From: Podarcis gaigeae
Lineage: Eukaryota
DNA length: 64,000 nucleotides
Assembly: GCA_964106915.2 (NCBI GenBank)
Contig: OZ066919.1
Strand: one strand, 5' to 3'
Under the pieces are notes generated by a model. It was not told the origin of the DNA. It did not search any database and saw only the letters and a program-made list of their open reading frames with translations. How positions within the stretch are numbered: the first letter of the stretch is position 1; the number at the start of each line of letters is the position of its first letter. The translations under genes and the position numbers were made by a program. Positions 14,931 to 63,091 of this stretch are shown one piece after another.

Positions 14931-17690
14931 TCTTCTTCAGCGATCACTTGTAGCTAAGTAAGATTGTCTTCCATGAACACTTCCTTAACATAGGTGACTG
15001 TGGAGGCCAATTCTGGATCCACACGCCCTTTCACAGTGGGGACATAGGTTTCCAGGCGGGAGTTGATCATGGTGAGGGTTTGCCAACCGTGCCTTCCTCT
15101 TAGCAAGTTTATCCCTTTTGTCCTATGTTTGAGCGTCTTCAAAGTCCATGACACCTTTGGTAAAGGCTGTTCTCCAATTGGAGCGCTCACAATTGTCGGT
15201 ATTTACATTGTATTTACAATTGTCGGTGTTTCCCAATTGTCGGTATTTACATTTTTTAAGATTTGCCTTGAGAGAGTCTTTAAACTTTTTGTTGACCACC
15301 AGCTTTATGCTTTCCATTTTTAAATTTAGAATAGAGTACTTGTTTTGGAAGTACTTGGATAATCAGGCATCCAAACAACATGAACAGTCCAACAAAGCTG
15401 ATGTTGACAAATCATTGCTTTGATTCTGGTGATCTTTGCTTCTTCCAGTACATTGGCATTAGTTCGCCTGTATTTCCAAGTGATATGTACAATTTTTCAG
15501 AGACACCAAGGTGTTGTATATGGCATTTATAAGTGTTCCATGTTTCACAAGCATACAATAGCTTTGTAAACAAGCATTTTGGTTTCCCTGTGAGTGTTCC
15601 TCAAACATTCTATGCTTCAATCGAGATAAAGCTGCACTCGCAGAGCTCAGGCAATGCTGGATTTCAGTATCAGTGTCGGCCCTTGTGGAAAGAGAACTGC
15701 CCAGGTAGGAGAAGTGATCAACATTTTCCAATGTTACACCACTGAGTTGGATTTGTTGTGCTGCAGAGGGGTTGTTTTGTGCATGTTGGTGTAGCACTTT
15801 TGGTTTTTGTGATGTTGAGCAATAGGCCAAGCTTTTTGTAAGCTTCTGCAAATATATTTAGGATAGTTTAGAGGTAATCCTCTGAGTGCGCGTACACTAT
15901 GTTGTCCTCAGCATACTGAAGCTCTGTGACGGAAGTTATGGTAACCTTACTCTTGGCTTTCAGCCTACTCAAATTAAAGAGCTTTCCATCTGTTCGATAT
16001 ATGATTTCTACTTCAGTGGGGAGTTTCCCTTTGACAATGTGTAGGATCATGGAAATGAACATAATAAATAGAGTTGGGGTGATAACATAACCCTGTTTAA
16101 CACCTGATCCCACTGTGAATGGTTCACTTTGAGAGCCATTGTTATCTGCGATTGTTGCTGTCATATCACGGAGGAGCCAAAGGATGCTCACAAATTTATC
16201 TGGGCAGCCAATTTTCAGAAGGACAGTCCACAGGGCATTGCAATTTACAGTGTTGAAGGCCTTAGTCAGGTCAATAAACGCCATATGCAGGGGTTGGTTT
16301 TGCGCTCTGCATTTTTCTTGAAGCTGTTGAGCAGTGAAAATCATGTCCACTGTTCCCCTAGAAGGTCAAAAACCATTTTGGGATTCAGGAAGGGTAGCCT
16401 CGGATATAGTTAGGAGACAGTTTGCTAAGATCCTTGCAAGGATTTTGCTAGCTGCAGCTAATAAAGAGATGCCTTGATAGTTTCCGTAATCCGTTCCATC
16501 TCCTTCTTTAAAAAAGGTTGATAATTTTGCCATTCCTATAGTCAGCAGGGATCTTTTTTTCTCTCCCAAAATGTTTTAATGAGCTTCTGAAGTTATTGTG
16601 TAAGTTCAGTTCTGCCCCCTTTGAAGACTTCGGCAGTTATCCCATCAGGTCTGCTGACTTTGTTGTTTTTCATTTGGTTAATAGTTGTACACAACTCTCC
16701 CAGATTTGGAGATACTACAAGCTCGTCTCTAATTTGTTTTTGCGGTATTTATGAGAGGACCTCAGCAGCTATGGGGGGGGGGGTTGCAGTTAAGGAAATG
16801 CTGGTAATGTTATTTCCAGTGCAATAGCTTCTTTATCTTTTAGAAGTGTGGTACCATCTGTTGAGCATAGGGATCATATGCCATTATTTATTGGCCCATA
16901 GATGGTCTTTGTGGCTTTAAAGAAACTCTGTGCATCATAAGTGCTGGCTAAGTGCTGGATCTCTTGAGCTTTTTTTATCCACCAGGTGTTCTTTACTTCT
17001 CTGGTTCTTCTTTAAACCTCAGCCTTAGTGTTGGCATAGGTTTTTTCCCCTAGTGGCGCAGTTTCTATCTCTTTGCCAGGTCTGAAAGGCCTTCCTTTTC
17101 TTGTCAATAATGCGTTCAATCTCACTATCATTCTCATCAAACCAGTCCTGGTGATTCTTGGTCTGGTATCCAATAGTTCACAGGTTACAATAATGGATGT
17201 TTTTAGCTTGGTCTAGTGTTCCTCAATGTTATCAGGGAACTCCAAAAGCAGATGGTCCTTAAGAGTCGTTTGGAAGCAATCCCACTTAATAGGATCTTGA
17301 AGGGCTTGATTGTTCATTTTGCACCTTGGTTTTCTTGCTTGAAGCCTGTGTTGAGTTATAATCTTGATAGCCATCATGGAATGTATTAATCAGTGATCTG
17401 TCCAGCATTGGCACTTGTCATAATTCTGGTAAGGAGCACTTTGCAGCGATATTCAGCTCGCAAAATTACATAGTCTAAGAGGTGCCAGTGGTTCGACCAA
17501 GAGTGCCTCCATGATGTTTTAAATTTATTTATTTTGTTGAAAGAGTGTGTTGGTAATATCAAGGTTGTGCACTGCACATATAGTCAAAAGTAATATTCCG
17601 TTCTGGTTGCCAATTCCTTCTTTCCCAATAGTCCCAGGCCACAGGTTGAAATCTTGCTCAGCTCTTGCATTAAAATTACCCACTCATCAT
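14931..17690 (-). mobile_element. Degenerate RTE-clade LINE (endonuclease 3' part, RT, zinc knuckle, (GAA)n tail)
   Basis: Minus-strand fragments GNFNAR, WHLLDYV, NYQGISLL, LPESQNGF, DMIF..QQLQEKC...AFIDLTKAF, GVKQG, RTDGKLFNLSRLKAK, LQYAED, LENVDHFSYLGS, CPHC..CGSRIGLHSH; many stops and frameshifts. Confidence 0.95.
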
Positions 17691-43228: not shown

Positions 43229-43883
43229 CCGTATTTTTCACCCTATAGGACGCACTTTTCCCCCTCAAAAATGAAGGGGAAATCTGTGTGCGACCTATGG
43301 GGCGAATACAGGCTTTCGCTGAAGCTTGGAGAGTGAGAGGGGTCGGTGCGCACCGACCCGTCTCGCTCTCCAGGCTTCAGGAAGCTATCAGCAAGCCTGG
43401 GGAGCCCGCGGGATAGCAGCCTCCCGCCCGGCGCGCGGGGCGCCCTGAAGCAGAGCGCCCCTCGCGCCGGGCAGACATCTGCAGCGTAGGGAGCTCTGCA
43501 GGAACTCCCGCGGGGCTCCCCACGCTGCGGATAGCAGCCTCCCTCCCAGAGCGCGGGGCACCCTGAAGCAGAGCGCACAGCGCGCCGGGCAGACATCCGC
43601 AGCGTGGGGAGCCCTGCGGGAGTTCCTGCGGGGCTCCCCAGGCTGCGGATAGCAGCCTACTGCACAGAGTGCGGGGTGCCCTGAAGCAGAGTGCCCCACA
43701 TTTCGGGCAGACATCAGTCAGCCCCACAAGCTCGGAGGACAGCGGGGAGCCGCAGCGCCATCATCCCGCTGTTCCCCGACCTGGTTTTGGGGGGGAAATA
43801 AAGGGGAAAATTTCCTTTATTTCCCCCCAAAAAAACTAGGTACATCCTATGGGACGGAGCGTCCTATGGGACGAAAAATACGG
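43229..43883. mobile_element. Tc1/mariner (Tc2-like) MITE with internal 118-bp GC-rich tandem repeat
   Basis: TIR CCGTATTTTTC/GAAAAATACGG, TA TSD; gatagcagcc recurs at 43412, 43530 and 43648. Confidence 0.9.
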
Positions 43884-55610: not shown

Positions 55611-55970
55611 NNNNNNNNNNNNNNNNNNNNNNNNNNNNNNNNNNNNNNNNNNNNNNNNNNNNNNNNNNNNNNNNNNNNNNNNNNNNNNNNNNNNNNNNNN
55701 NNNNNNNNNNNNNNNNNNNNNNNNNNNNNNNNNNNNNNNNNNNNNNNNNNNNNNNNNNNNNNNNNNNNNNNNNNNNNNNNNNNNNNNNNNNNNNNNNNNN
55801 NNNNNNNNNNNNNNNNNNNNNNNNNNNNNNNNNNNNNNNNNNNNNNNNNNNNNNNNNNNNNNNNNNNNNNNNNNNNNNNNNNNNNNNNNNNNNNNNNNNN
55901 NNNNNNNNNNNNNNNNNNNNNNNNNNNNNNNNNNNNNNNNNNNNNNNNNNNNNNNNNNNNNNNNNNNNNN
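55611..55970. other. Assembly gap (360 N)
   Basis: Run of N. Confidence 1.
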
Positions 55971-58180: not shown

Positions 58181-59199
58181 AGGGTTATTAGGGTTATTAG
58201 AGATGCCTATTCTGGTGAAGCAAATGAGTCACCACAGGGCAATGTGCACATCAGGAAGTGACATGCATTTGAAACTATGTCCCCAAAGAGACTAAACATC
58301 ATCAGTACAAGCAAAATTCAACCAGTAATGAAAAGGATGGTGAATTAAGCCAGGGTTTGTTCTGGGAAACTGGTTAGTTCATGATAAGCTTTGTTACATG
58401 CCAATGGAACTGAAGGAGAACGGCAGAGCATGAGAGAAACTGAGAGGTCAGGTTCCTAAAATTGCTAACAAAGAACATGAAAGCCCATTTGGATAGACCA
58501 GAAGATGTGGCTTCTCCTTGCCAATCTTTCTTTGCATTTCTAAACCACTTAATATTTTAAAGTATCTAAGCGGGATACAAAAATCCATTTTAAAAAAGGC
58601 ATTGCTCCATCACAGTGGCATGAAGAACAGGGAAAAGCCAGCAGTCAGCTTCCCAAAGCAGTCTGCTGGACCAGCAAATTAAGCAAAACAAAAACAAAAA
58701 AGCTTAATGATGAGAGCCATGTGGGCTGCCCTGAGAAGGACATTCCATAAGGTTGGTGCCACATCTGGAAAGGCTCTGCTGCTTCTGGTCACCTGTCATG
58801 CTTCAGTTGGAGAATGAGATGGAAAAGGATCTCAGATGTTGAATGGAGAACACAGGAAAGAGAATGCAGTCCCTATGACAACCAGGCCCTAACCTGTGCT
58901 GGTAATTTTCAATACCAACTTTAAAGTTAACGTTTCAAAAATTAATTAATAGACCACACTAGCCACCAGACCTATGACTGTGCCCTGTTTTCATTGATTT
59001 CCTTATTCTGCAACAAACAGACCTGCATTTTTATAGTATTAAAGTAATGAAATCAAATGTTATCTAACAAATGTGGGAGGGCATGGAATTTACAGTGTTC
59101 CAACTATCTTGGAGTCTCTCATTCAGTCATATTAAATACTCACACTGTGGAAGGAAGGAAACAAGGAATTTTGGTGAGGAAATACTCTTCCAGTGTTTT

Positions 59200-59824
59200 T
59201 CAGATACTTTCTTCTATCACCTGATCCGAGGACGTGTTCTCCATTTTAGATGTGTCTGGTTCTTGTTTCAGGCAGAAGACATGGGTTTTCAAAATCAAGA
59301 TATACATTTTTCGGAACCTTTTGATTCTCAAGGCATACACAATGGGATTTAAGGAAGAATTGGCATGGGAGAGTAGAATGGCCACATCTAACACCGGCAG
59401 GGGGACACGACATGTTTGGCAGAAATGTGAGACGGAGTTGATAATGAGCAGAGGCAGCCAGCACACAATGAACAAGAAGAGAACCAGAGCCAAAGATTTG
59501 ATCATTTTGAACTCCCTCCCATAAAGGATCCGTGTTCCTTTCATGCATGTTGCATTTTGTTTCAGCTTTGTTTGGAGGATGTTGAAGATCTCTGAGTAGA
59601 GAGCACACATGATCAGCAGTGGGACAAGGATCCAGGAGAAGAAGCTGAAGTACACCACGTAATCCATGCTCATCACCGTTGGGTAAGAACACTTCAAGTA
59701 GATGGGGTTTTCAGGCTTCCTTAGGTTCCATCCAAACATGGGCACGAGCCCCACCAACAGAGACGTGATCCAGCAGAAACTCAGAGCCGCCCAGATTCTT
59801 CTCCGTGTGACCATTGCTTTGTAT
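59200..59824 (-). CDS. ADORA3: Adenosine receptor A3(-like), coding exon 2 (TM4-TM7, C-tail)
   Basis: Branch point CTAAC plus ctgctttttcaaatAG acceptor (AG 59826-59825) gives in-frame R|YKAMVTRRRIW. Motifs PMFGWN, YGREFK..KSL, CWLP, LLSHANS.LNPIVYA; TGA at 59202-59200. Spliced CDS is 954 nt = 317 aa. Confidence 0.96.
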
Positions 59825-60022
59825 CTATTTGAAAAAGCAGGTTAGTTTAAAATATTTTACAGATGGGATTCTGCTTGCAGCACCATCCTTATACTATGAT
59901 TTGTCACAGACTTTTTCATTTTCGGCAGGCTGGGAGAAAGCACAAGGAGCATTACTTTGGTGCATGGGATATATTGTAACTTTTCCAGTGAAAATCCACA
60001 GCCATGACTTCATGGTACTCAC
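59825..60022 (-). other. ADORA3 coding intron, 198 bp, phase 2
   Basis: GTGAGT...CTAAC...TAG; lies just after DRYLRVKxxxR, as in mammalian ADORA3. Confidence 0.93.
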
Positions 60023-60351
60023 CGTATGGCCAGTTTCACTCTCAGATATCGGTCTGTTGCAATGGCCAGCAGGGACATGATGGAAGCGTGACAAAAGATC
60101 ATCAAGATGCAGCAGATGAAAAGGCAAGCGTAGAAGTGGAGAACAACCTCCAGCCTCAGCACAACGGCCAGAGGGGCAACAAGGACCCCAACGGCAATAT
60201 CAGCCAGTGCCAAGGACACGATGAAGTAAAAAGTGGTGTTCTGGTAGGCCGGGATCCGTCTCACCACGCAGATCACTAGAGCATTTCCTAAAGTGGCAGT
60301 CACTGCTATCAGCACCTCAACGATGATGTAGACAATGTGCAAAGTATTCAT
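60023..60351 (-). CDS. ADORA3: Adenosine receptor A3(-like), coding exon 1 (TM1-TM3)
   Basis: ATG at 60351 with an in-frame TAA upstream. [16 protein letters not shown]...GNALVICVV...[23 protein letters not shown]...[23 protein letters not shown] matches human ADORA3 ([39 protein letters not shown]). Ends at phase-2 donor CG|GTGAGT (GT 60022-60021). Confidence 0.96.
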
Positions 60352-60713
60352 GGACAAACTTCTCTCGGTCCTCTTCAACTTATGGAGTTATGGTGCCCTC
60401 ACAGAGCAAGAGCCCAATGTAGAAGAGTTGGAATCTAAGGCTTCCTCTCATGCGCTAACTGGTCTTTTTTTTAAAAAAAAAAAACTCTTCCCGATACCTT
60501 GTAGAATTGCAGAAGTTAAGTAAGCTGTTCTCTTGTACTCTGCCTCTCAAAGAGTAGCTTTCATGCGGGAACCCACAAAGTAAAATAGTTCCTGTTAATG
60601 CTTCACACATTCCAACCTGCTTTGGCAAGTTGCTATGAAACAAAACAAAAAAAACCATATAAAAAAAACAAAACCATATGAAAAAAAACGAGGGGAAAAA
60701 ACACTGGCACAAG

Positions 60714-61077: not shown

Positions 61078-61360
61078 TAAAACATTTAAGTGCCAGGACA
61101 TAAATGTGCCCTTTACAGTGAGGCACCTGGTGAAAAAAATCCTCTTCACCTGCAAATCAATAGCCTTTTAAAGTGAGGAGGGGTGGGTTATTGCCTTTTT
61201 ATTATGTGTTCTATGTTATAAACTTTCTTGTGGTCTCTTGATGAAGGGTGGTATATAAATTTAACAAATGAAAATAAATAAAAGCGGCAACAACGGGCAG
61301 TAGATTCCAAAGAAGGCCCCATACTTCTGTCTCCAACTCGACATTCCTGCCACCCAGTTA

Positions 61361-62093
61361 CAGTGGCACCTCTAATTACAAACTTAATTCATTCTGGTGG
61401 TCCGTTCTTAACCTGAAACTGTTCTTAACTAGAGGCGTGCTTTCACTAATGGGGCTTCTTGCTGCCGCTGCGCTACTGGCGCACGATTTCTATTCTCATC
61501 CTGGGGCATGGTACTCAACTCGAGGTAACTCTTCCAGGCTAGCGGAGTTTGTAACCTGAAGCGTTTGTAACCTGAGGCAGTTGTAAGTAGAGGTTCTACT
61601 AGTGGTACCTTGTTTTACAAACTTAATTCATTTCGGAAGTCCGTTCTTAAACCAAAGCATTCTTAAACCAAGGCGTGCTTTCCCATAGCAGTGGGGGACT
61701 CAATTTACAAATGGAACACACTCAACAGGAAGAGGAACACGTTCTGCTTCCAAGGCAAAGTTCACAAACCAAATCACCTACAGTGGTACCTCGGGTTAAG
61801 TACTTAATTCATTCTGGAGGTCCGTTCTTAACCTGAAACTGTTCTTAACCTGAAGCACCACTTTAGCTAATGGGGCCTCCTGCTGCTGCCGCACCGTCGA
61901 ACACCGATTTCTGTTCTTATCCTGAAGCAAAGTTCTTAACCTGAAGCACTATTTCTGGGTTAGCGGAGTGTGTAACCTGAAGCGTATGTAACCTGAAGCG
62001 TATGTAACCCGAGGTATCACAGTACTTCGGGTTTGCAGCGTTCTTAATCCAGTTGTCCATAAACTAAGCTGTTCTTAAACCAAGGTACCAATG
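61361..62093. mobile_element. Cluster of three Tigger-like MITEs: 61361-61600, and 61601-62093 with nested 61781-62022
   Basis: Three (C)AGTGG(T/C)ACCT starts; the inner copy is flanked by TA. Confidence 0.85.
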
Positions 62094-63091
62094 CACAAAG
62101 GCTGATACTGCTAGTCCCAATGCAACATCAGTATAGCAACAGGAAATCCTAAACCATATCTCTGCCAGCAAGCACTAAACTTCTGCTATTCTGTTCTCCA
62201 TTTCCACATGTGGAATCTAGGTCATATATGTACAGAGAGCTGGCTAGCAAGTAAGATCCATATCTCCACTCAACCACATAGGCCAAGTTTGACCCACCTG
62301 TCAACCACCTGACATCATGATGGCACCACTGACCATTTTTGCAGCACTTTGCTAGTGTTGACTATCAGCTGATTGCTGGCATTAGGGAAATCCTGTGTAC
62401 ATGCTTCTCAAACACCGGCTCTAAGCCAATAGGCAGCACTTGGGAAGTACTGGGCAAGGGGCTTTGCAGGCAGCGTCAATCAGCTGCTTGGTGGTGTTTG
62501 CACACCCCCTTTCATCCAAACCATGTCTTTACCTGCCCAACACCTGCTGGCATATATGAAGTAAAGTATAGGGCAGGTGCTTGTGACTTGGCCAAAACAG
62601 CCTTGTGAGGCAAATAGGGAGCCCTAATGGCTGTAATTAGACTCACAAGCCAGAGATTCCCCTCACCTACATTCAAGATCAATAATAAAAACAGGTTTCA
62701 GCCTCCATCCTAGCAAATGGGGGTGGCTCACATCTCAGCTTGTCTAGTATTTCCATTTAAAGAGGTCTGAAGCACTAACATATTCTCCTTTCTGAGAGAA
62801 AGGAGGACCTAACATATCAGGTGAGGGTCAACTAAGTTTTACTCAGATTCTGAAATTAATCAACATGACTTAAGTTAGGTCCATTGATTTCAACTAGTCT
62901 TCCCTGAGTAAAATTTAGTTGAATTTTACCCATTGCTTTCAGACATACCCCACAAGCCTCTAGTCACTCCAAATACTTTTAGATACAAATCTGATGAATT
63001 TTTAATGTGATTAAAATGCTTCCCTAAAATGCATGTTGATTGCAATAAGAATCCAAAGGAACTCATGACAAGTACAATTTTGATCAATGTA

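Follow-up and report, generated by a model that had tools for sequence, protein, structure and literature searches.

A predicted adenosine A3 receptor paralog with altered pocket residues in Podarcis gaigeae and other sauropsids

The closest described relatives of the gene analysed here, an ADORA3-like gene of Podarcis gaigeae lying in a 64,000-nt stretch of DNA (the window), are the human and sheep A3 receptors (PDB 8x16, 9ebh and 8yh0), which were the best matches of its protein in both sequence and fold (58% identity). The window protein has H3.37, S5.42, W5.46, I5.47, S7.42 and H7.43 in common with these receptors and, with human A3, a locus beside RAP1A and ATP5PB. It differs from them in carrying C3.36, Y45.52, V5.38, L6.52, S6.58, D7.36, R2.65, M3.33 and I6.34, in an extracellular loop 3 (ECL3) that is two residues longer and retains a CxxC pair like that of A1 (human A3 is without such a pair), in having no extracellular N-glycosylation sequon, and in having a second copy adjoining its gene. 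The combination of H3.37 and S5.42 (H88 and S170 in the window protein) is described as A3-specific in the accessible text of PMC11021478. Orthologs in Podarcis, Lacerta and Zootoca, identical at 298-314 of the 317 residues, are already predicted in databases as 'adenosine receptor A3(-like)', as are proteins of geckos, Hemicordylus, crocodilians and birds, under names that do not separate the two classes of A3 described below.

The survey of the adora4 and adora5 clades is reportedly the work of Kowatschew and Korsching, from 2021. Like the window gene, adora4 and adora5 are extra non-mammalian adenosine receptor genes with putative ligands (PMC8462279). Unlike them, the window protein fell inside the tetrapod A3 clade (support 99/97; its best PDB matches were also A3), away from the shark and salmon outgroup, proteins that we called adora4-like by judgement; this placement ruled out a surviving adora4. 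A separate gene on C17 (L007, L019; G000:C17:79.36 Mb, minus strand) resembles the python adora5 in the accessible sections of PMC8462279. D3.49, R3.50 and Y3.51 are missing from its translation, in which 7.36 is R; judged from that translation, it is a more altered adenosine-receptor relative than the window gene. The survey sampled chicken and python, and its accessible sections give one chicken adora3, of the type called class B here, and mention no pair (PMC8462279); nor did we find a description of a sauropsid ADORA3 pair in a literature search for which subscription journals lay mostly outside coverage.

The gene and its locus

The window gene lies on the minus strand and has two coding exons (954 nt, 317 codons, the sole stop codon being the terminal one). 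Its intron was absent from a preliminary description of 59200..60351. The features, in transcript order, are:

60352..60654, minus strand: likely 5' untranslated region; contigs of runs X1 and X5 (two studies) end at 60654 and 60653, beside simple repeats, so these ends are not a mapped transcription start
60023..60351, minus strand: coding exon 1 of ADORA3 class A, TM1 to ICL2, with R66 (2.65), M84 (3.33), C87 (3.36), H88 (3.37) and DRY
59825..60022, minus strand: intron of ADORA3 class A, 198 nt, phase-2, GT..AG, at the same position as in the neighbouring copy
59200..59824, minus strand: coding exon 2 of ADORA3 class A, ICL2/TM4 to C-tail, with Y157 (45.52), P158, V166 (5.38), I218 (6.34), W232, L236 (6.52), N239, S242 (6.58), D256 (7.36), S262, H263 and NPxxY
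58952..59199, minus strand: likely 3' untranslated region; the spliced X5 contig extends to 58952

The 198-nt intron was skipped in contigs of 2 of the 4 runs compared (X5 and X9, from different studies; probable RNA of related lizards), with the splice joint at 59824/60023 in the X5 contig and the skip aligned 2 nt off in the X9 contig; contigs of runs X1, X2 and X3 covered the intron. The RNA nature of runs X1, X2, X3, X5, X9 and X10 was guessed, and they carry no tissue or expression level. The intact frame and the spliced contigs ruled out a pseudogene.

The protein has the features of a rhodopsin-like (class A) GPCR: D2.50, DRY, P5.50, CWxP, NPxxY, C3.25-C45.50 and seven TM helices. P0003, a 98%-identical protein, scored 154.9 bits against PF00001 (cut-off 30.5), and its AlphaFold model (pLDDT 86) has seven long helices, with the A3R-Gi-NECA complex 8yh0 as the closest fold. 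The human A3 structure 8x16_R matched at E-values of 6.4e-60 (exon 2) and 3.9e-37 (exon 1), so the resemblance to A3 is not chance. The P1 anchors N6.55, S/T7.42, H7.43, L6.51, I7.39 and an aromatic 45.52 are all present, the last as Tyr, not Phe. The N-terminus is 7 residues shorter than in gecko counterparts.

Alignment to 8x16_R bore out the eight changes relative to human A3 listed in the preliminary description, namely T94>C87 (TGT, 60093-60091), F168>Y157 (59685-59683), V169>P158, M177>V166 (59658-59656), S247>L236, Y265>D256, S73>R66 and L91>M84, together with the residues it had reported as retained (E12 (1.39), H88 (3.37), W232, N239, S262, H263, DRY at 100-102 and NPxxY at 269-273). 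Its view that the signalling core is kept while ligand contacts are altered agrees with this residue comparison, to which we add two further changes, I253(6.58)>S242 and A229(6.34)>I218.

The preliminary description had asked how many ADORA3-like copies the genome holds; there are two, as an adjacent pair. A genome search with each exon placed the beginning of the second A3 gene 11.8 kb from the ATG of the window gene, on the opposite strand and outside the window. The two genes share the intron position and 158 of 302 residues, and they stand head-to-head, the ATG of exon 1 of the window gene pointing towards the second copy. T3.36, F45.52 and M5.38 of the human subtypes, missing in the window protein (C87, Y157 and V166), are retained in the second copy, as is Y7.36; the second copy also carries Q3.37, G5.46, T5.47 and T7.42. 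The locus order is INKA2(+), RAP1A(-), window gene(-), second copy(+), ATP5PB(-):

C15:37.108 Mb, plus strand: FAM212 (INKA2), from the locus search
C15:37.174-37.192 Mb, minus strand: Ras-type GTPase read as RAP1A, from the locus search
G000:C15:37334166-37337944, plus strand: second A3 copy (class B), intact, 309 aa
C15:37.342-37.346 Mb, minus strand: ATP synthase b (ATP5PB), from the locus search

The pair sits, as ADORA3 does in the human order, between RAP1A/INKA2 and ATP5PB. We take the human layout to be ADORA3 head-to-head with RAP1A and tail-to-tail with ATP5PB. On that layout it is the second copy that would keep the original orientation, and the duplicate that became inverted is likely the window gene. 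No further A3 fragment was found in the 334 kb around the pair, and outside the coding exons the DNA likeness of the two loci was repeat-like only. The remaining genome matches, named from their translations, were A1, A2A, A2B, intronless adorb2-like and adora5-like genes located elsewhere.

Between the two A3 genes, just past the window, a 331-nt stretch is present twice at 99% identity (L021:496-826 and L021:5046-5376), having been repeated recently or duplicated locally. From the class B stop codon to an inner ATP5PB exon is only ~4 kb (G000:C15:37337944-37342158). TMIGD3/CD300-like exons were found neither in 164 kb near the pair (tblastn) nor among the matches listed at the locus, and two proteins, the caecilian model P0202 and the mammal-type P0330, join A3 to a TMIGD3-like Ig domain; the ADORA3 locus of lizards may no longer contain TMIGD3 and C1orf162. 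The window gave 0 Rfam matches, and its other features are:

15459-16365, minus strand: decayed reverse-transcriptase (LINE) fragment (PF00078, E 2e-13)
43411-43715: GC-rich 118-nt tandem array, 2.6 copies
55611-55970: run of 360 N
61260-62180, upstream of the gene: high-copy short repeat with very deep run coverage

Two classes of A3 in sauropsids

To place the pair, we compared proteins from three homolog searches (the best 120 of 366, 247 and 1677), one search of 50% representatives and cluster look-ups, with 20 later cluster members or representatives added and 13 short fragments left out of the counts. The sequences are cluster representatives, mostly of birds, and not independent events. 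Class A, the type of the window protein, comprised 50 proteins (7 lacertid, 6 other squamate, 4 crocodilian and 33 bird), and class B, the type of the neighbouring copy, comprised 137 (20 squamate, 4 crocodilian and 113 bird). All 50 class A proteins had a residue other than T at 3.36 (S, C or P), 43 had Y45.52 and 47 had V5.38, with the three combined in 42 of the 50. Y45.52, V5.38 and H3.37 each occurred in 0 of the 137 class B proteins, a non-T3.36 in 14 and T-F-M in 114. Neither Y45.52 nor V5.38 was seen in turtles (n = 11) or mammals (n = 4): turtles and amphibians (n = 2) had F45.52, M5.38 and N3.37, and the mammals (3 marsupials and 1 partial pangolin) had T-H at 3.36-3.37, F45.52 and M5.38. 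The class A anchors were close to constant (N6.55, S7.42, H3.37 and Y1.35 in 50/50 and H7.43 in 49/50).

Six lineage groups were still recovered after the removal of 23 pocket columns, so circularity does not explain the grouping within lineages. Only four columns had a majority residue exclusive to squamate, crocodilian and bird class A (3.33, 3.36, 45.52 and 5.38), although M3.33 was also present in 7 of 20 squamate class B proteins. All four lie in the pocket, which accounts for 23 of about 290 columns; the probability of this by chance is 3e-5. R2.65 was confined to lacertids (7/7), D7.36 and L/I6.52 to lacertids and Hemicordylus, and I6.34 occurred in 7/7 full lacertid proteins; R2.65, D7.36 and L6.52 are later lacertid/cordylid additions. 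Other A3 proteins, those of marsupials among them, vary at 45.53, 6.52, 6.58 and 7.36, and the changes at Y7.36, S6.52, V45.53 and L3.33, which are present as first described, are weak evidence because these positions vary so widely.

Both classes were found on equal-sized contigs in Podarcis muralis, three geckos, Hemicordylus, Alligator sinensis, emu, egret, roadrunner (a 54-kb contig) and others, and under consecutive accessions in two alligators, a crocodile, Podarcis lilfordi and Lacerta agilis. An adjacent A3 pair is present also in geckos, a cordylid, crocodilians and birds. The preliminary description had offered a diverged ortholog or a squamate paralog: the paralog stood, since a copy with T3.36, F45.52 and M5.38 adjoins the gene, and the restriction to squamates fell, since the same core signature occurs in 4/4 crocodilian and 26/33 bird class A proteins. 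The residues, whose generality in sauropsid ADORA3 it had held would count against its reading, are general in one of the two classes and absent from the other.

Among the matches listed (best 120 each), iguanians, anguimorphs, skinks, tegu, Rhineura, turtles and passerines showed class B or a single type and no class A, and repeated loss of class A in those lineages is possible. No named snake protein was among the matches listed (best 120 each). The supplement of PMC8462279, as far as it was accessible, gives python adora1, 2a, 2b and 5 and no adora3, and the main text calls adora3 present; both A3 copies may have been lost or strongly changed in snakes. Squamate class B proteins have changed in ways of their own (G5.46 in most; T5.47 and Q3.37 in 20/20; M6.51 in 6/20; P3.32 in 3/20) and sit on longer branches than class A.

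The pocket and its predicted ligand response

Published structures and mutants, as given in the accessible portions of each source, suggest what these changes might do. The 5' group of adenosine or NECA is in contact with 3.36, 5.38, 5.42 and 6.52 in A2A (PMC5736361), and the 5' sub-pocket of A3 is H95/S181/S247 (PMC11021478). Human A3 T94A had an adenosine pKi of 4.9 versus 5.0 and a NECA pKi of 4.6 versus 6.3; adenosine pKi was 4.6 for S73A, 4.5 for Y265A and 5.0 for V169E; Y15A and H95A cost ten- to twentyfold in adenosine; S271A gave no measurable binding and N250A and H272A no signal (PMC12361428). These are single-mutant data, which do not sum eight changes, and D7.36 is harsher than Ala. 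M177A lowered the IB-MECA pIC50 of human A3 from 10.73 to 7.65 and F168A abolished the response (PMC7695835); M177A left NECA binding to A2A unchanged (PMC4186821). For an F-to-Y mutant at 45.52 (F168Y), we found no literature.

All residues essential for adenosine in human A3 (N6.55, S7.42, H7.43, H3.37 and Y1.35) are present in the window protein, and the class A changes appear, from residue positions, to ring the 5' end of the ribose, with the adenine and diol anchors unchanged. In the mechanism we propose, adenine would stack on Y45.52, where Tyr would keep an aromatic ring, and bond N6.55; the 2' and 3' hydroxyls would be held by S7.42 and H7.43 via a Y1.35-E1.39 network; and activation would be relayed by W6.48, PIF, DRY and NPxxY, with Gi coupling assumed from family membership. 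The 5'-uronamide drugs NECA and IB-MECA would lose contacts they depend on through the absence of T3.36 and M5.38 combined with L6.52 and M3.33, and adenosine potency would shift modestly, probably downward. Because the changes ring the 5' end and the anchors stay, adenosine would be expected to remain an agonist, perhaps a weaker one, and the 5'-uronamides to lose most. In lacertids, R66 and D256 may form a compensating salt bridge, proposed because S73 can bond to Y265 in human A3 (accessible text of PMC12361428), and I6.34 may raise basal activity, proposed because human A3 A229E (6.34) is constitutively active (accessible text of PMC5471610). We therefore favour, with moderate confidence, an intact and spliced ADORA3 paralog that is likely still a Gi-type adenosine receptor, its ribose-5' pocket retuned and held by selection.

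Methylthioadenosine is known as a receptor ligand. A switch of class A to an endogenous nucleoside other than adenosine, with a 5'-modified adenosine (for example, 5'-methylthioadenosine) as the most plausible candidate, is the strongest alternative, and we think it unlikely. It is suggested by a less polar 5' sub-pocket (C/S/P3.36, V5.38, M3.33 and L/I/C/G6.52) with the adenine and diol anchors kept: the altered positions line the 5' group, the signature, confined to the pocket, persists in lizards, crocodilians and birds and has escaped homogenisation, and the sister copy, retaining T/F/M, could cover adenosine. Yet every essential adenosine anchor is kept, and T94A leaves adenosine unaffected in human A3 (accessible text of PMC12361428). 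Of the ligands raised in the preliminary description, inosine is favoured by no residue and by nothing else that we found. In the accessible text of PMC11544091, m6A requires a hydrophobic 6.58, and I253N and I253Q reduce m6A more than adenosine; the window protein does not have the hydrophobic set at 45.53, 5.35, 6.58 and 7.35 (S242 at 6.58; P, M and L elsewhere), and the polar S242 counts against an m6A preference.

History of the pair and constraint on class A

Histories of the duplication were compared by AU tests (IQ-TREE, JTT, fast searches; 54 rows in the whole-protein tree, 34 in the AU set and 32 in the segment trees). Whole-protein trees left the deep nodes without resolution, and AU rejected 0 of 6 histories. 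Without pocket columns, the best constrained tree was a squamate-only duplication (two-class sauropsid tree, p 0.064), and classes A and B joined within crocodilians (0.92) and within squamates (0.40). Segments differed: in the ECL2-TM5 tree, partly circular because two signature columns lie inside it, class A formed one side of a 92% bootstrap branch; in TM1-ICL2, three independent duplications were rejected (AU p 0.028); and in ICL3-H8, two clean sauropsid classes were rejected (AU p 0.030). Alligator A and B were 95% identical in residues 211-250 and 90% in 251-290 versus 54% in 144-180 (ECL2-TM5), where alligator A was 72% identical to emu A and 43% to emu B; the alligator copies look partly homogenised. 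Because of this patchy identity and the segment trees, the likely history would be that ADORA3 duplicated once, no later than the split between lizards and archosaurs, and that gene conversion then homogenised the copies in part, sparing ECL2-TM5 and 3.36/3.37.

Separate ADORA3 duplications in lizards, crocodilians and birds, with one copy of each converging on S3.36-H3.37, Y45.52 and V5.38, seem improbable to us. The joining of A with B in crocodilians and squamates without pocket columns fits such a history, as does the single class among the turtle matches listed (11 proteins), and Xenopus laevis, with three tandem adora3 genes in the accessible supplement of PMC8462279, indicates a locus that duplicates readily. 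However, four to five parallel changes would be required three times, the TM1-ICL2 segment rejects it, and the patchy A-B identity in alligator fits conversion. Whether by one old duplication or by repeated convergence, selection on the pocket is needed. H3.37, common to class A and mammals only, fits a duplication of amniote age or convergence; AU rejected neither a class A nor a class B grouping with mammals, H3.37 linking mammals to class A and T/F/M and, on the human layout given above, gene orientation linking them to class B. Taking one old duplication with conversion further, an unrecognised sauropsid A3 subtype predating the lizard-bird split, with a conversion-protected pocket retuned to a 5'-modified adenosine metabolite (for example, methylthioadenosine) and tuned further in lacertids by I6.34 and a salt bridge between R2.65 and D7.36, perhaps with higher basal activity, is a speculative reading that we rate as rather unlikely.

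Identity between lacertids and geckos was 71% for class A and 66% for class B, so class A is not decaying faster than B. The coding differences listed in related lizards were 13 synonymous and 9 non-synonymous (sites 224 and 727), a ratio of ~0.21, which is rough, the 22 differences coming from 40 of 74 difference rows. Functionally meaningless drift in a redundant copy is thus very unlikely: A3 pockets do vary a lot, and the lack of class A among listed matches (best 120 each) of iguanians, anguimorphs, skinks, tegu, Rhineura and turtles suggests that it is dispensable in some lineages, but an intact gene in 7/7 lacertid proteins, the lacertid-gecko identities, the rough dN/dS and a signature fixed across three lineages stand against it, that conservation already largely refuting it.

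Together, these comparisons point to a real, conserved variant of a known receptor that is wider than squamates and whose pharmacological consequence is predicted; two A3 receptors with different tuning are likely to be present in many reptiles and birds. The usual view of adenosine receptor pockets is that 3.36, 45.52 and 5.38 hardly vary. Class A has changed all three and kept the changes in lizards, crocodilians and birds, which makes it a natural multi-site mutant whose matched control lies 12 kb away. With the pair, one can test which contacts are required for adenosine and whether some other nucleoside has a receptor to itself. In a reptile or bird, an experiment with NECA or IB-MECA may reflect just one of two A3 genes, which database names do not tell apart.
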